Source: a virus. From it: DNA of 56,349 bases. Location: the UHGV virus genome UHGV-0011358; one strand, given 5' to 3'. Positions 7,078 through 12,745 of this stretch are shown piece after piece. Each line of letters opens with the position of its first letter. The first letter of the stretch is position 1. Under the pieces are notes generated by a model that did no database searches, had not been told where the DNA came from, and saw nothing but the letters and a program-made list of their open reading frames with translations. Made by a program: the position numbers and the translations under genes.

Positions 7078-7737
7078 ATGAGTGAATCAAGAGTAATTGG
7101 CATAATTCGTCATCGCACTAACCCTGATGTTTACCCATCGTTTGAGGTAACAACATGCCGCACGGAATACAATTTTGGATCATGCTATTTAGTTGGTGTC
7201 CGCGCTGATACTCGCGGCACTTATTCAGTTATGGCGTCAAGCTGGAAATTTGATAAATACGCTAATTTATCGAATAAGGATGATGACGGCATGAATAAAG
7301 AAAGTGAAATCATTGATGAATTAATCGAAGATGAACGCCATGATTGCGATAAACCGGAAGTTACAGAATGGAAGGCAGGAGAAAAGCCGCCGTGCGGAGT
7401 GTGGCTTGATTGCATTGGATCAAGAAGCGATATAGTGATTGATGTCGTTAAGTTTTTCTACCTGGGCGATAAGTGGTCTATTGCTCACAGTAAATTAGAA
7501 ACAGGTATTGAAACACCAATTGCATGGAAACAATACTCGTACCGCATTCACATTGACCCGAAAGAAAAAGCACTGGCGGAAATTGCGTTTGCGCTGGCTA
7601 CTAAGGTGATTGGTGAAGATGCGGCAAAAGAGATTGACTTTAACCATGACAATGATTTTTCGTGCGATTATCGCAATATGGCGCAAGCAATTATTGATGG
7701 ATGTATCGGGCACGTTGAATACACCGGGGGCAAATAA
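7078..7737 (+). CDS. hypothetical protein
   Basis: 219 aa ORF with GAGGA RBS; no recognised domain. Confidence 0.5.
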   Translation: MSESRVIGIIRHRTNPDVYPSFEVTTCRTEYNFGSCYLVGVRADTRGTYSVMASSWKFDKYANLSNKDDDGMNKESEIIDELIEDERHDCDKPEVTEWKAGEKPPCGVWLDCIGSRSDIVIDVVKFFYLGDKWSIAHSKLETGIETPIAWKQYSYRIHIDPKEKALAEIAFALATKVIGEDAAKEIDFNHDNDFSCDYRNMAQAIIDGCIGHVEYTGGK

Positions 7738-7955
7738 TGGATAAGATCGGGGCAATACTTATTAATCGTGAGCAAGTGCAAAAAATGTTAGGCGGGCTTA
7801 GCAAGTCCGCCTTTTTTAAACTGGTTAAAAAATGGAAGGATTCAGGTACTCCATTCCCTGAACCCGTTAAGGGAATGCCAGCATTAAAGCGCGGCGGTTC
7901 TCTTTACCGTTATCAGGATGTTATTTCATTTTGTAGGTCAATGGGCTTCATGTAA
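7737..7955 (+). CDS. AlpA/excisionase-like small DNA-binding protein
   Basis: 72 aa, basic, HTH-like; convergent with and overlapping the integrase 3' end. Confidence 0.4.
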   Translation: MDKIGAILINREQVQKMLGGLSKSAFFKLVKKWKDSGTPFPEPVKGMPALKRGGSLYRYQDVISFCRSMGFM

Positions 7956-9112
7956 TAATCAGCAAGCATGTTCATCGCCTCTGTCTGTTCCCTCACGTAG
8001 TCATACTGATCATATATAGCCAACATCCCCGCCAGCTTATGACCTAAAACCTTTTCTGCAACGTGAGGCGCAATGCCAATGGCAGAGAGGTTCGTTCTCA
8101 CAGTGCGGCGTAGATCGTGACACGACCACGGCTCGCCGCCCATCCTTAACATCAAATCCCTTGCCGCTGTTTTCGGTACACTTCTGTCCACCGCCTCATC
8201 CCTTCCAGAAAGCACAGGAACGAAGACAAAATTAAAGCTATGCAGATCCATAGCCTCACGCAATAAATCGACGCTAACGTCGGATAAACCGCGTTTAAAC
8301 TCGTTTCTGTTCTTACTCAATGCACCCGGCACAGTCCACACGCAGTTATCAAGATCGAAATGTTCTCGCCTTGCGTTTGTTAGCTCGCTTGTCCTGCATC
8401 CGGTGAATATAATCAGTTTCATCAATATCTGATTTAGACGCGCCATTTTTGAACTGTCTATAAGGCTGATTAGATGGCGAATCTCCTGTATTGACAAAAC
8501 CCGCTTCCCTTGCGCCGGGTTTTTACCAACGTCTTTCACGCGTAGTAAAGATATGTCGTCACGATCCACGCGGCGGCGACGCATGGCGTATTTTATTACC
8601 GCTTTCATTCTATTGAGAACTATGCCCGCCTGAACTGGTGCACCACCATTAGCCACCTTTCTAAAAACACCCTCCCACATCATAGCGTCCATATCATCGA
8701 CTATATAGCTACCGTATGACCTGATGACGTGCTTATTCAACATCGCTTCAACCTGCTTATAGTTAACCATGTTTCTTGCCTGTGGTGATTCCATGTACTC
8801 CCTGACAATATCCTCAACCGTTGCCCGTGTCGTAACGCGGGAAAAGTGCATTCTTTTTACGATTGATGGATCTCGTCCTGAGTTTAACACTTCCTTATGT
8901 TCAGCCACCGCCGCGCGGGCTTCTTTAAGTGTTATTTCTCCGTATGTGCCGATCTTCATCCGTCGAGGCTTGCCGTTGAATCGGTAGCGATACTGGAAAG
9001 ATATAACTCCGCGCGGGCTTATCCTGGCAGACAATCCGCCCGCATCCGGTACTTCTTCCGGGCCGTCGTATGGCTTGCCGTGGATGTTTCTTAGTTTGGT
9101 ATCTGTAAGCAT
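7913..9112 (-). CDS. int: tyrosine integrase (P4-like)
   Basis: MLTDTKLRNI N-terminus and C-terminal catalytic region (HDLRRT, HVAEKVLGH); ATG at 9112. Confidence 0.9.
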   Translation of the reverse strand: MLTDTKLRNIHGKPYDGPEEVPDAGGLSARISPRGVISFQYRYRFNGKPRRMKIGTYGEITLKEARAAVAEHKEVLNSGRDPSIVKRMHFSRVTTRATVEDIVREYMESPQARNMVNYKQVEAMLNKHVIRSYGSYIVDDMDAMMWEGVFRKVANGGAPVQAGIVLNRMKAVIKYAMRRRRVDRDDISLLRVKDVGKNPAQGKRVLSIQEIRHLISLIDSSKMARLNQILMKLIIFTGCRTSELTNARREHFDLDNCVWTVPGALSKNRNEFKRGLSDVSVDLLREAMDLHSFNFVFVPVLSGRDEAVDRSVPKTAARDLMLRMGGEPWSCHDLRRTVRTNLSAIGIAPHVAEKVLGHKLAGMLAIYDQYDYVREQTEAMNMLADYYMKPIDLQNEITS

Positions 9113-9370
9113 AATTTGGTCACTATTTGGTACACACATTTTACGCATGGATAGTACCACGATAGGGAACGATATGACACGATAGAATAAATATTTCTTT
9201 TTAAATCAACGCGAAACGGTGACGATGCGACACGATATGAAATTATAGAAATGGCACTATCCGTTTATCTTTTGAATGGGTAGCTTAACGAAAAATCTAT
9301 TGGTATTCAATATCTTATGATTTGTTTTTGTTTTTGATTTATCAATTTGGTCACAATTTGGTACACAAAA
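9113..9370. repeat. candidate attP region with arm-type direct repeats
   Basis: AATTTGGTCACNATTTGGTACACA at 9113-9138 and 9344-9368; three to four ACACGATA copies at 9158-9243. Confidence 0.4.
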
Positions 9371-9394
9371 AGAAACGAGGCGTAAGCCTCGTTT
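9363..9394 (-). terminator. rho-independent terminator after tail fiber gene
   Basis: Hairpin AAACGAGGC-GTAA-GCCTCGTTT followed by a T-run on the minus strand. Confidence 0.5.
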
Positions 9395-9424
9395 CGCGCG
9401 GCGATGCTCTTCGCACATCACCTC

Positions 9425-12400
9425 TTATTCTTCGCTTCCTGTGAACTGACTGACAAGCGCTTCAAGTTTTGCGATCCGCTCATCCATTGCGGCAATATTA
9501 GCTTTCAGGCTGGCGTTTTCCTCTTCCAGTTCTGTGACGCGGTTATCTGTTTCTCGTGCCACCTGGACAAGCAAACCAGTCACCGCCGCATAGTCAACAT
9601 TAAGGTAGCGTGTTTCTTCTCGTAGCTCGTTGCCGTCAACGGTCGGCCCCTGCAATTCATTACCGTAACGAGTAAACGATCCTACGGCTTCCGGTAGCGC
9701 CTCCATTACTTCCTGTGCAATAACGCCAGCATAAGGAAGGCCGTTTTCCTTGAGCGTGTAGGTGTACCCGTTCATTTTGCGGATTGATTCAGTGGCTTCA
9801 CCTATAACCTGAATGTTATCTTTAAGGTCGCGGTCAGATGATTGGTGAAGTGTCTGGCATGTGATATTACCGCTAACATCAAACATTTGACCTGATGATG
9901 TTTTTTGTGCATAAAACAGGTATCCGGCAGATGTTCCAACCTCAAAAACGTTTTGTCGATCACTTGACCCCCAGACCCTGATGCTAACTGGTAGTTCTGA
10001 ATTACCTGAATTAAGTAAAGCAAAACGACTGCCCGTCCCTGTTTGTTTTCTAATTACTAAATCGGCAGTTGAATTAACCTCATTTTTGTTAACGGTTAGC
10101 GCCTGTGCTGTAGCACCGTTGACAGTACCGCTTAGTAGTTGCACTGCGCCATCATCGCCATTTAACAGCACTTGAGCGCTGCTTCTGTGGTTTTTCAGGA
10201 ACAACATTTTGCCTGTGCTTTCCGATGTACCTACCGACCACGCCGAATTGGTTTCAGTGCTATCAACACCACGCACAGTACAATTCATCGCGCTATAATC
10301 TGACGTACTTCCAAGCACATCAATTCGCCCACCACCAGATTTTACAGGAGTATCAGTGGTTAACGACCTTACGTTTACATCCTGATTCCTTCCTGAAACA
10401 ACAACCTGACTCCATGCCGACCAATTGCCATTTTCATAATAGCGAACGTATATTTGTTTTGTGTCTGTGCCAACAAGGGTTTGCAAGTTTGTATAATCTG
10501 AATCCGTGATCTTACGAATTGACTCTACACGAAGCAAAAAGTTGCCGCCTACGCCGTCAGGCTTATTGGTAATATTTGCACCGCCTCCGGCACTTTTGCA
10601 TTGATAGTATTTAACTGATCCTTTATCTGAGGCCTTAATGGTCAGATCATTAAGATCAATAGTCAGGTCGCCAATGTCTTCAGGCTCGATTGCTCCCGAT
10701 ATACCTGCGTTAAATGTGGCAAGGTCAGAAAATGTTGTTTTACCGCCTACCGTTAACCCGCTATCGAGTTTTGCTTGTGTAATTACTTTGCTGTTTTTTG
10801 AGTGGTCAGAAGAATTACCAAAATACAAATCACCGTCACCAGCTATACCTAGGTATTTTTGATCAACATCATCAACCTTAAACCCAATGGACAAGTTTTT
10901 AATTGTGTTGTTGCTCGTTAAAACCAAAGGCGTATGCTGAGATCCTTTGATGCTTACCGTAGTGTTATCGGAACTGGTGCTTGTGTTTGCAAATTCTGCG
11001 GTGGCTGCGCTGATTTTGTAAGTTATTTTTAGATTGCGGGCCTCAACCCTCCCGTCGTGGCGAACAATAAAATCACCACTTGATTCACCTTTTGTGTTTT
11101 TCGCCCTGATGTGGATTTCGCCAAGTGATTCGTTGTTTTCAGGCGACCAAACAACGCCGCGCTCGCTTCCGTCGTTGTTCATGAACCACAGATGAGCGGT
11201 TCCTTTTGCTGATTTTAGCCTGATAGATGGCATTTCTTTCAATATATCAAGATCACCAGACATAACATCGCCGGATTTTTTCACCTGCGCATCGTTCGTT
11301 ACGTTGCCAAGTCCAACATCCGATTTCGACGGCTTGTTTTGGGTTCCGTATAGCTCATTAATGGCATAAGTGCCGCTGTTGAGTCCAGTATCGTTACCAG
11401 CGAAAATCTTGACCCTGGCCTTTTCGTATTCGATATTAATCGCTGACCACGTATCACCGCACCGAGAGAATACACTAGAACCGTGGTTATAATGGGTCGC
11501 CGTGCTTCCGGTAGGCTTATCGGCACGCCAGAAATGACCGCCTTTGTCACGCAGTGCTTTTAATAGTTCTGTATTGCTCATCTTGCCGTTTGTTGCTATC
11601 CCGCTACCGCCAAGACCGAAAGCGCCTGTAAGCATAGCATTAGAAAGGCCCAAATCTGCCTTGCTGGGTTTGTTTACCTGGTCGTAAATCCTTGCTGCTG
11701 GGCTTTCAATATATCCAGCGGGTGCGTCGGCTTGCTCAACAAATCCTTCAGGAATGTATAATTCCGTGTTGCCAGTCTGCGCCAGCACCGCTACTTTTGT
11801 GTTTTTAATATAAGATCGCTGGTAGCACCAGACCTCGATATAGCCGTCACCTTTAACCAGGCCGTAACACATTTGACCATTATTGGGAAGGTTTGGTGAA
11901 CCGAGTCGGCGAATACTTAAAAATTTAGATATATTTTCACTGGTTACTTCGCCTGTGTCGTTAAGACCTCGAGCGGAGATCTCTATAAAGTCAATATTCC
12001 CGTAACTTAAACCGTAGCCACCGCCATTTGTAACCATTAGCGTTAAGTGGCAGTCTGATGACTTTGGATCGCTAAGTTTAGCAATCTTAACGTAAGCGCC
12101 ATTACCGCTAGTTTTAACAGGCCAAGCACATTGGACCATTGGGCTGGTAAGCCTTCCCATTTGATTCAGATATTCTTGCGCCCTGTTCTCTGATGTTTTG
12201 GCGTTGGTTTCGCTTGTTTTCGCTGCCGTCTCACTTGCCTTAGCGTTGGTTTCTGATGTTTTCGCTGCCGTGGCGGATTTTGCAGCCGCTGTTTTTGACG
12301 CTTCTGCTGCGTTTTTGTCGGATCCTGTTTTTTGAGCGTTGGCGGTTGATTTGGCTGTCTCTGCGCGAATGTTGGTAAGAAGCTGATCCAACTGACCTTC

Positions 12401-12745
12401 GCCGCCAAAATCCTCCCACCACTCGACAGCGGCGGCGATCTCTGTTTCCTTGCCCTGGTAGTAACGCAGGGTTTCAGCCACATCCTGAGCAAGCCCATCA
12501 ACTGAGATCGAGTCAGATAGCAGGATGCTGAATTTTGTCCCGGCAGGGATGGCGGGGTTAGCCGCTGGCGTCACTGACAGTTCAGTGCCGCTTTTAATTT
12601 CTGTGATGGTAAAGATCTGTACCGGATTGCCAACAGCAATGAGCGTGCAGCCTACACGAATGAGAGAAAGCGGCGCGGAGAAGTTTGTGCCCGTGCCTGT
12701 AACAGTATTGCCGCTAATGGCAATTGTTCCAGTTGTGTAAATCAT
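9425..12745 (-). CDS. tail fiber / tailspike with C-terminal S74-type intramolecular chaperone domain
   Basis: 1106 aa; Ala/Lys/Thr-rich repeat region; C-terminus DLKDNIQ...GVIAQEV...YAAVTGLLVQ resembles the self-cleaving chaperone domain. Confidence 0.8.
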   Translation of the reverse strand: MIYTTGTIAISGNTVTGTGTNFSAPLSLIRVGCTLIAVGNPVQIFTITEIKSGTELSVTPAANPAIPAGTKFSILLSDSISVDGLAQDVAETLRYYQGKETEIAAAVEWWEDFGGEGQLDQLLTNIRAETAKSTANAQKTGSDKNAAEASKTAAAKSATAAKTSETNAKASETAAKTSETNAKTSENRAQEYLNQMGRLTSPMVQCAWPVKTSGNGAYVKIAKLSDPKSSDCHLTLMVTNGGGYGLSYGNIDFIEISARGLNDTGEVTSENISKFLSIRRLGSPNLPNNGQMCYGLVKGDGYIEVWCYQRSYIKNTKVAVLAQTGNTELYIPEGFVEQADAPAGYIESPAARIYDQVNKPSKADLGLSNAMLTGAFGLGGSGIATNGKMSNTELLKALRDKGGHFWRADKPTGSTATHYNHGSSVFSRCGDTWSAINIEYEKARVKIFAGNDTGLNSGTYAINELYGTQNKPSKSDVGLGNVTNDAQVKKSGDVMSGDLDILKEMPSIRLKSAKGTAHLWFMNNDGSERGVVWSPENNESLGEIHIRAKNTKGESSGDFIVRHDGRVEARNLKITYKISAATAEFANTSTSSDNTTVSIKGSQHTPLVLTSNNTIKNLSIGFKVDDVDQKYLGIAGDGDLYFGNSSDHSKNSKVITQAKLDSGLTVGGKTTFSDLATFNAGISGAIEPEDIGDLTIDLNDLTIKASDKGSVKYYQCKSAGGGANITNKPDGVGGNFLLRVESIRKITDSDYTNLQTLVGTDTKQIYVRYYENGNWSAWSQVVVSGRNQDVNVRSLTTDTPVKSGGGRIDVLGSTSDYSAMNCTVRGVDSTETNSAWSVGTSESTGKMLFLKNHRSSAQVLLNGDDGAVQLLSGTVNGATAQALTVNKNEVNSTADLVIRKQTGTGSRFALLNSGNSELPVSIRVWGSSDRQNVFEVGTSAGYLFYAQKTSSGQMFDVSGNITCQTLHQSSDRDLKDNIQVIGEATESIRKMNGYTYTLKENGLPYAGVIAQEVMEALPEAVGSFTRYGNELQGPTVDGNELREETRYLNVDYAAVTGLLVQVARETDNRVTELEEENASLKANIAAMDERIAKLEALVSQFTGSEE

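Follow-up and report, generated by a model that had tools for sequence, protein, structure and literature searches.

A very probable attP with paired direct repeats beside the integrase gene of an mEp021-like coliphage

The 255 bp that separate the integrase gene (int) from the tail-fibre terminator in the 56,349-bp stretch of DNA analyzed here (the window) are very probably the attP of a temperate mEp021-like (mEpimmI) coliphage with a type II integrase (9113–9367). The site is an ordinary, well-formed attP for a lambda-type heterobivalent integrase, and it belongs to the published mEpimmI type II/abgT class.

Nucleotide comparison with a phage collection identified the window as a member of the mEp021-like (mEpimmI) group. 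Only mEp010, 013, 044, 554, 515, 021 and MagusPhagus matched, with ∼90% identity over 77–87% of a 20-kb query. The DNA of the int region is 90–91% identical to that of mEp044, mEp010 and mEp013, which carry type II integrases (PMC11893012), and thus the window integrase (Int) is of type II. The window and mEp021 Int proteins are only 50% identical; the latter is type Ia in the text of the published classification, but is listed as Ib in Table 2 (PMC11893012). The domains of Int are ordered Arm-DNA-bind_3 (PF13356, residues 2–87, E 2e-19), Phage_int_M and Phage_integrase (PF00589, catalytic, residues 205–371, E 1.1e-17) in Pfam, and its N-domain matches the solved N-domains of CP4-like integrases (PDB 3ju0 and 3jtz). 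The ATG of int was set at 9112 because the N-terminus MLTDTKLR is common to the window and mEp021 proteins. Read along the minus strand, the tail-fibre gene is followed by its terminator, by the 255 bp carrying the repeats, and then by int. The features are as follows.

7737–7955, plus strand: gene for a 72-aa helix-turn-helix (HTH) protein, candidate excision factor (RDF), convergent with int
7913–9112, minus strand: int, 399-aa tyrosine integrase (domains by Pfam), ATG at 9110–9112
9113–9136, direct orientation: int-proximal 24-mer AATTTGGTCACTATTTGGTACACA, putative arm-type site pair abutting the int ATG; half-sites TTTGGTCAC (9115–9123) and TTTGGTACAC (9126–9135)
9138–9143, minus strand: TAAAAT, −10-like hexamer just upstream of the arm pair on the int strand, candidate int promoter element
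9157–9185, plus strand: ACGAT block 1, three sites (9159, 9169, 9179) 10 bp apart, from a pentamer scan
9220–9238, plus strand: ACGAT block 2, two sites (9222, 9232) 10 bp apart, 43 bp from block 1
9256–9284: candidate core-type Int sites, imperfect inverted repeat ACTATCC (9256–9262)/GGGTAGC (9278–9284), centre 9270
9257–9273: core CTATCCGTTTATCTTTT, from the attP/junction/attB alignment, 15/17 match to attB CTATCCACTTATCTTTT at the abgT 3′-end
9305–9317, plus strand: weak candidate IHF-like site ATTCAATATCTTA, one mismatch to WATCAANNNNTTR
9344–9367, direct orientation: int-distal 24-mer AATTTGGTCACAATTTGGTACACA, putative arm-type site pair from the repeat comparison; half-sites TTTGGTCAC (9346–9354) and TTTGGTACAC (9357–9366)
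9372–9395, minus strand: intrinsic terminator of the tail-fibre gene (10-bp stem, 4-nt loop, T-run), outer edge of attP
9425–12745, minus strand: tail-fibre gene, 1106 aa, with a Peptidase_S74 domain (ORF list, Pfam)

The 24-bp repeats beside int

A preliminary description of this DNA had reported a 24-bp direct repeat at the int start and again 230 bp away. The repeat was confirmed: the two copies are identical at 23 of 24 positions and lie 231 bp apart, start to start. When up to 3 mismatches were allowed, just these two copies were found in the window, whichever strand was searched (0.00 expected, 100 shuffles). Each 24-mer is a tandem pair of half-sites spaced by 11 bp, TTTGGTCAC and then TTTGGTACAC. 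The half-site motif TTTGGT(A)CAC occurs four times in the 56-kb window, always inside the 24-mers (0.53 copies expected). Among 8 type II phages only 1/24 columns of the proximal and 2/24 of the distal 24-mer are variable, when compared with 18/31 columns in the 9274–9304 region of the same attPs.

We infer that the four TTTGGT(A)CAC half-sites are arm-type sites for the Int N-domain. This is the best reading of the 24-mers at the sequence level, because Int has an arm-binding N-domain and the half-site motif is conserved beside int genes that are associated with different cores; the likeness to arm-type sites noted in the preliminary description is thereby supported. The attP of mEp021, rebuilt from the ends of its record, carries TTTGGTCAC-N2-TTTGGTACAC beside int and TTTGGTCTC-N2-TTTGGTACAC 241 bp away, and the DNA between its arm pairs cannot be aligned with that of the window. 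Its core is also different: direct comparison with the 5′-end of dgcM (ydaM) gave CTGTCTGGA. Another candidate for the mEp021 core, TGAATAATCA, came from a longest common substring and was rejected as spurious. The distance from the distal pair to the core identity block is 70 bp in mEp021 and 72 bp in the window.

Viral and bacterial contigs were then scanned with an alignment of the window and mEp021 integrases. Every relative down to ∼44% Int identity has 2–3 co-oriented copies of TTTGGTACAC, 11–12 bp apart and 20–40 bp upstream of int; such pairs or triples were present in relatives from Escherichia sp., Citrobacter, Atlantibacter and Sodalis (44–47% Int identity). In phage-form contigs a second pair lies 230–240 bp away. 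The N-domains of these relatives are 58–63% identical to that of window Int, but the rest of the protein is only 39–48% identical. Integrase group II likewise departs from group I from position 84 on (PMC11893012). Where the N-domain diverges further, TATGTACAC-type motifs replace the paired motif beside int. More distant integrases have tandem repeats at this place that are distinct yet related, namely TTATGTACAC (L068 and L075, with a close variant in L076), ATATGTACAC (L064) or TATGTACA (L080), and TGTACTC-type motifs (L077, L078 and L086). As judged from these alignments, the arm motif tracks the integrase rather than the phage backbone, and shifts as the N-domain diverges. Conservation of the distal 24-mer between integrase types could come partly from a common genome backbone, because the adjoining terminator and the end of the tail-fibre gene are likewise conserved.

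The same backbone conservation of the distal copy would suit a different function, in which the 24-mers are operators of another conserved phage regulator, controlling for example int and tail-fibre read-through, and flank the core by chance. The places are plausible for regulation, since one 24-mer abuts the int start and the other the tail-fibre terminator. The motif, however, moves with the integrase gene into unrelated contexts in other genera, changes as the Int N-domain diverges and is found nowhere else in the phage genome, and both copies lie at lambda-like distances from the mapped core. We consider operators of this kind very improbable. Still less credible, to a point where it can hardly be entertained, is that the repeats are functionless, having arisen by a chance duplication or been left near int as a scar when modules were exchanged. 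All that speaks for it is that these phages are mosaic in general, whereas 0 matches are expected by chance, the repeats are kept across genera in otherwise unalignable DNA, and the variation among close relatives avoids them. We retain the assignment of the 24-mers as putative arm-type sites.

Two metagenomic type II contigs, L020 (IMGVR_UViG_3300045988_076816) and L022 (IMGVR_UViG_3300045988_064823), have a single 24-mer between the int ATG and the tail-fibre terminator, and exactly the 231 bp with the core and all ACGAT sites are absent. Recombination or slippage between the two arm repeats would produce just such a deletion, and these phages should be unable to integrate. It may be an assembly artefact, although the sites sit in the middle of the contigs. 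In addition, type II int genes are devoid of a Shine–Dalgarno sequence because the 24-mer abuts the ATG; in mEp021-type phages 13–20 more bases with AGGTG lie between the pair and the ATG.

Core and junctions at abgT

The preliminary description left the core out, and proposed prophage junctions as a check. The core is now placed at 9257–9273: in E. coli lysogens of close relatives, phage sequence ends and abgT/ogt begins within this segment, between the 24-mers and inside the interval first reported, so that the check favors the attP reading. The lysogens belong to relatives that are 88–96% identical to the window in the att region, not to the window phage itself. In 13 complete E. coli genomes a match to window 9100–9273 (9100–9253 in one of them) lies beside an integrase gene, and beyond it come a 3′ fragment of abgT and then ogt. 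The opposite junction, in strain 2017C-4173W12, joins a C-terminally truncated abgT to DNA that resembles the window from the core up to and including the distal 24-mer. The empty site in K-12 is CTATCCACTTATCTTTT, from which the window core differs at 2/17 positions; unbroken identity between attP and attB extends over 9 bp, TTATCTTTT (9265–9273).

A four-way alignment contained attP (...GGCACTATCCGTTTATCTTTTGAATGG...), attB (...GCCCTATCCACTTATCTTTTTGGTGG...) and the two hybrids expected from recombination. Int-side junctions were read in three genomes and two IMG/VR prophages; in all five, bases specific to the phage persist as far as the equivalent of 9263, and abgT follows right after TTATCTTTT. 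At the abgT-side junction the base is bacterial at 9263 and that of the phage at 9274. Since phage bases are kept to 9263 on one side and at 9274 on the other, the alignment places the crossover in related prophages inside 9264–9273, at the 3′-end of E. coli abgT. Among the 8 type II attP variants the core differs in its left half (CTATCCGT, TTATCCGC, TTACCTAC), and TTATCTTTT is invariant. The variant of the window, CTATCCGTTTATC, is unlike the cores of MagusPhagus and of the lysogens examined.

The inverted repeat around 9270 matches at 5/7 positions in the window and at 7/7 (GTTATCC/GGATAAC) in MagusPhagus and in a further relative (L063). From its centre at 9270 a 7-bp overlap, ATCTTTT (9267–9273), is predicted. 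A second inverted repeat, 9149–9159/9252–9262, was rejected as a functional pair: its right copy becomes TTACCT in type II variants and its left copy stays GGATAGTA.

Upon integration AbgT ends in ...LPYPLIF* and its last 27 residues (LVVWLLMLLAWYLVGLPIGPGIYPRLS) are lost, as in L003 (10459–11901, NZ_CP030768.1), and int comes to lie beside ogt. AbgT is the p-aminobenzoyl-glutamate transporter; the phage provides just a stop codon, so that the gene stays without its 3′-end, whereas many phages with sites inside genes restore what their insertion removes. Insertion of phages with type II integrases (mEp010, mEp013, mEp044 and 10 prophages) at the abgT 3′-end was reported in 2025, in silico from prophage ends, and the PCR check in that work was for mEp021 at ydaM only (PMC11893012).

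Two observations concern other junctions. In the metagenomic contig L016 (IMGVR_UViG_3300045988_111075) the int-side junction retains phage sequence to ...GCTTATC and continues into GGTTAAGCCGGTAAG..., not abgT, perhaps because the phage entered a secondary site or sits at another host locus; a real junction of this kind would mean that the exchange begins no further right than the equivalent of 9270. Members of the groups with 41–47% Int identity (L046, L071–L074, L068, L075 and L076) share a putative core, CTTACACG(A/C)AAGATCAC(A/T)T, ∼170–200 nt upstream of int, and bacterial flanking DNA follows it in genome contigs.

The ACGAT array, the candidate excision factor and int expression

The preliminary description counted three to four copies of ACACGATA between the 24-mers, and likened the whole arrangement to arm-type sites. 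The second family was confirmed in a modified form, as five plus-strand ACGAT pentamers (spacings 10, 10, 43 and 10 bp), of which two are exact copies of ACACGATA; the others read CCACGATA, GAACGATA and TGACGATG. The arm-type reading remains the best one for the 24-mers, and this family more likely represents excision-factor sites. Across the whole window ACACGATA is not enriched when up to 1 mismatch is allowed (40 found vs. 41.5 expected). Five same-strand ACGAT pentamers within 80 bp, on the other hand, were found in 0/300 shuffles; the highest count, 4, came up in two shuffles.

All five pentamers lie on the int side of the core, the block of two nearer to the core and the block of three nearer to int. 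Successive sites are spaced by one helical turn and the blocks by about four. Among 8 type II phages a single position of the 25 in the pentamers is variable, and the bases between the block 1 pentamers vary. RDF sites are described as typically direct repeats, one turn apart (PMC7498355). The short motif differs by lineage, ACGAT here, GAACG/ACGGA in type I phages and GAAAC/TGAAA in the groups with 41–47% Int identity, and the positions of the blocks relative to the arm pair are constant (∼24–54 and 82–113 nt).

A candidate for the protein that binds the array is the 72-aa HTH protein, whose gene overlaps the 3′-end of int tail-to-tail by 43 bp (7913–7955). Of 83 related loci, 60 have a homologue of this ORF that converges on the 3′-end of int. 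The predicted recognition helix changes with the motif: SKSAFFKLVK is found with ACGAT, SRGTFYSWRK with GWACGGA, and SRTTFYRKR (SRTTFWRKR in L074) with GAAACRG. The last pairing recurs in two separate Int groups, between which identity of the HTH proteins is otherwise only about 51–57%. The ORF matches phrog_4745 ("DNA binding protein") in PHROGs; in Pfam, NCBIfam and PHROGs the matches to AlpA, HTH_17 and Xis_Gifsy_1 were weak and below threshold, and a PDB sequence search returned no relevant match. All homologues in a large protein database are E. coli "helix-turn-helix" proteins without Pfam domains. The AF2 model (pLDDT 83) has a strand-helix-helix...strand-helix fold, for which Foldseek ranked winged HTH domains of the MerR type and one putative excisionase highest among PDB structures, with E > 0.1 in every case. 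Profile, PDB, Foldseek and BLASTP searches revealed no significant similarity to known excisionases.

On balance we favor, by a modest degree, the ACGAT pentamers as binding sites for an RDF encoded at 7737–7955, which is the best-supported reading of the sequence. In the rival reading, still within a genuine attP, the pentamers would be a second class of Int arm sites or sites for a host factor, and the HTH protein an unrelated regulator. That lambda-type integrases can use several arm sites of degenerate sequence lends this some weight, as does the lack of a significant match of the HTH protein to known excisionases. ACGAT, however, is unrelated to the TTTGGTACAC motif, and the N-domain and TTTGGTACAC remain constant across lineages whose short-repeat motif changes. 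The short motif follows the recognition helix of the HTH protein instead, and its copies are phased by one turn and grouped 2 + 3 as in known RDF arrays. We therefore regard such other roles as unlikely, and treat the 72-aa protein below as the candidate RDF.

The tail-to-tail overlap of int and the HTH gene (about 36–60 bp) is kept in relatives from several genera, and could cause convergent-transcription interference between the two genes.

A consensus sigma-70 promoter scan of 8900–9500 called none in the int-proximal arm, where the −10-like hexamer is present without a good −35. A TAnnnT hexamer lies 7–8 nt upstream of the first arm site in 11/13 distinct lineage sequences, and the 20 bp at 9137–9156 are invariant in 8 type II phages. 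With an int start near 9131, the arm pair would span about +1 to +20 and the block of three ACGAT sites would take the place of a −35. Because int runs away from the core and the conserved −10-like hexamer abuts the proximal arm pair, we propose that Int would also repress int, with the HTH protein probably doing the same, by analogy with KplE1 and P4. Minus-strand promoter matches at 9456–9427 and 9345–9317 were discarded, as shuffles give equally many. It is only remotely possible that 9345–9317 is an int promoter that exists in the circular form alone.

The IHF-like site at 9305–9317 is the only match with up to 1 mismatch in the att region, at a rate in the window (about one per 800 bp) no higher than chance. 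In type II phages its ATTCAA and TTA parts are mostly conserved and the N4 varies. Another segment, AATCAA-N4-AAR (9204–9219, between the ACGAT blocks), has an IHF-like pattern of conservation among type II phages, with a conserved hexamer and variation at exactly the N positions (9210–9213), but departs from the consensus in its TTR part.

Elsewhere in the window, ∼22-bp tandem repeats (GGGGTAGTGTCACAGAGTCACT, at least 3 copies) occupy 56287–56349 and run off its end. They include one of the densest 5-mer clusters of the window (GTCAC, five times), and look like iterons or an operator array cut by the window boundary.

Possible modularity and comparison with known systems

In the intasome that we propose, the arm pairs would be bound by the Int N-domain, one ∼130 bp from the core on the int side and one ∼70 bp away on the other side, and the imperfect inverted repeat that surrounds the predicted overlap, ATCTTTT, would be occupied by the C-terminal domains of Int. 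Arm and core could then be bridged by one Int molecule in the folded complex, as in lambda. The five phased ACGAT sites would be bound by the 72-aa HTH protein, which is probably the excision (directionality) factor.

A tentative extension, to which we give somewhat less than even weight, is that the integration module of this clade consists of two exchangeable halves. The constant half would comprise the arm-binding N-domain, the TTTGGTACAC site pairs and a near-fixed arm-to-core geometry (distal pair at ∼70 bp in both the window and mEp021). The swappable half would hold the core together with the core-binding and catalytic domains of Int, and the small HTH protein with its phased short repeats. 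By exchange of this second half, phages that are otherwise alike would have come to target the neighboring host loci abgT, ydaM/dgcM and mppA. If this holds, (i) the clade would be a natural template for retargeting integrases via domain and site swaps; and (ii) the direct arm repeats would make attP a self-deleting cassette, as in L020 and L022.

For a recently described and common group of gut coliphages, of which earlier only the insertion locus was reported, the analysis provides a map of the attachment site at the level of single bases. New with respect to the literature consulted are the detailed anatomy (putative arm pairs, phased accessory sites, a candidate RDF gene and a predicted overlap), the sharing of one arm motif by integrases of several core specificities, and the apparent capacity of the arm repeats to delete the site. 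The map tells annotators where these prophages start and end, explains why abgT is cut by 27 codons in lysogens, and supplies sequences on which integration vectors or binding assays can be based. For P4-like integrases the comparison is a useful, if modest, aid to predicting attP anatomy, with related GTAC-containing motifs in more distant ones. The understanding of site-specific recombination is unchanged.

The closest analogue of the layout is the KplE1 (CPS-53)/HK620/Sf6 module, with IntS, TorI and attL (PMC2951348). IntS has the same order of Arm-DNA-bind_3, Phage_int_M and Phage_integrase domains as window Int. In both systems int is transcribed away from the core and an att arm lies between the core and the int ATG, which in the window carries an arm pair and the ACGAT arrays (between 9257–9273 and 9112). 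Tandem arm-type sites (putative in the window) are located just upstream of the ATG, at the −10 (a −10-like hexamer in the window), and the RDF gene (a candidate in the window) is not co-transcribed with int. KplE1 attL has five short direct-repeat TorI sites, two near the core and three near int, as in the ACGAT layout (PMC2951348). The arrangement that an int start near 9131 would give is the one demonstrated experimentally for KplE1 PintS, where IntS and TorI both repress int (PMC2951348).

The components, in contrast, are different. Window Int is only 23% identical to IntS, and BLASTP gave no alignment between the 72-aa HTH protein and TorI. The arm motif is TTTGGTACAC in the window vs. 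a TAAA-containing motif in KplE1, and the short repeat is ACGAT vs. GTTCG. The target is the 3′-end of the protein-coding abgT gene in the window and the tRNA gene argW in KplE1, and the RDF gene lies at the prophage end opposite int in KplE1, whereas the window candidate meets int tail-to-tail. Because TorI is dissimilar to the 72-aa protein, the motifs differ and the target is not a tRNA gene, the window site is not a member of the KplE1 module family, although it resembles KplE1 attL in layout.

The lambda attP is laid out with arm sites P1, P2 and P′1–3, the core, and sites for Xis and IHF. Lambda and the window both have a heterobivalent tyrosine integrase system with arm-type sites (putative in the window) on either side of the core, near −130 to −155 and +72 to +99 and with a tandem pair among them, and direct repeats for an accessory protein (a candidate in the window) between one set of arm sites and the core, in a total of ∼255 bp. 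The arm-binding domain is Arm-DNA-bind_3 in the window vs. the lambda Int N-domain family. The window attP lies upstream of int and not downstream as in lambda, so that no sib-type control is possible, and the candidate RDF gene is convergent with int, whereas that of lambda is co-transcribed with it.

Satellite phage P4 shares with the window an Arm-DNA-bind_3 integrase and an attP upstream of int, a likeness drawn from description. The P4 target is a tRNA-Leu gene and thus differs from abgT. According to Piazzolla et al. (2006), as summarized in a later paper, Int and the RDF Vis both lower int expression in P4, with Int binding near the int transcription start and Vis proposed to act on int mRNA (PMC2951348).

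For the mEpimmI phages themselves, the published account derived the insertion locus and a core "motif II" from prophage ends, and did not describe arm-type sites, direct repeats or an excisionase (PMC11893012). The mEpimmI type II phages and the window are alike in DNA (∼90% identity), in integrase type and in their common target, the 3′-end of abgT (PMC11893012).
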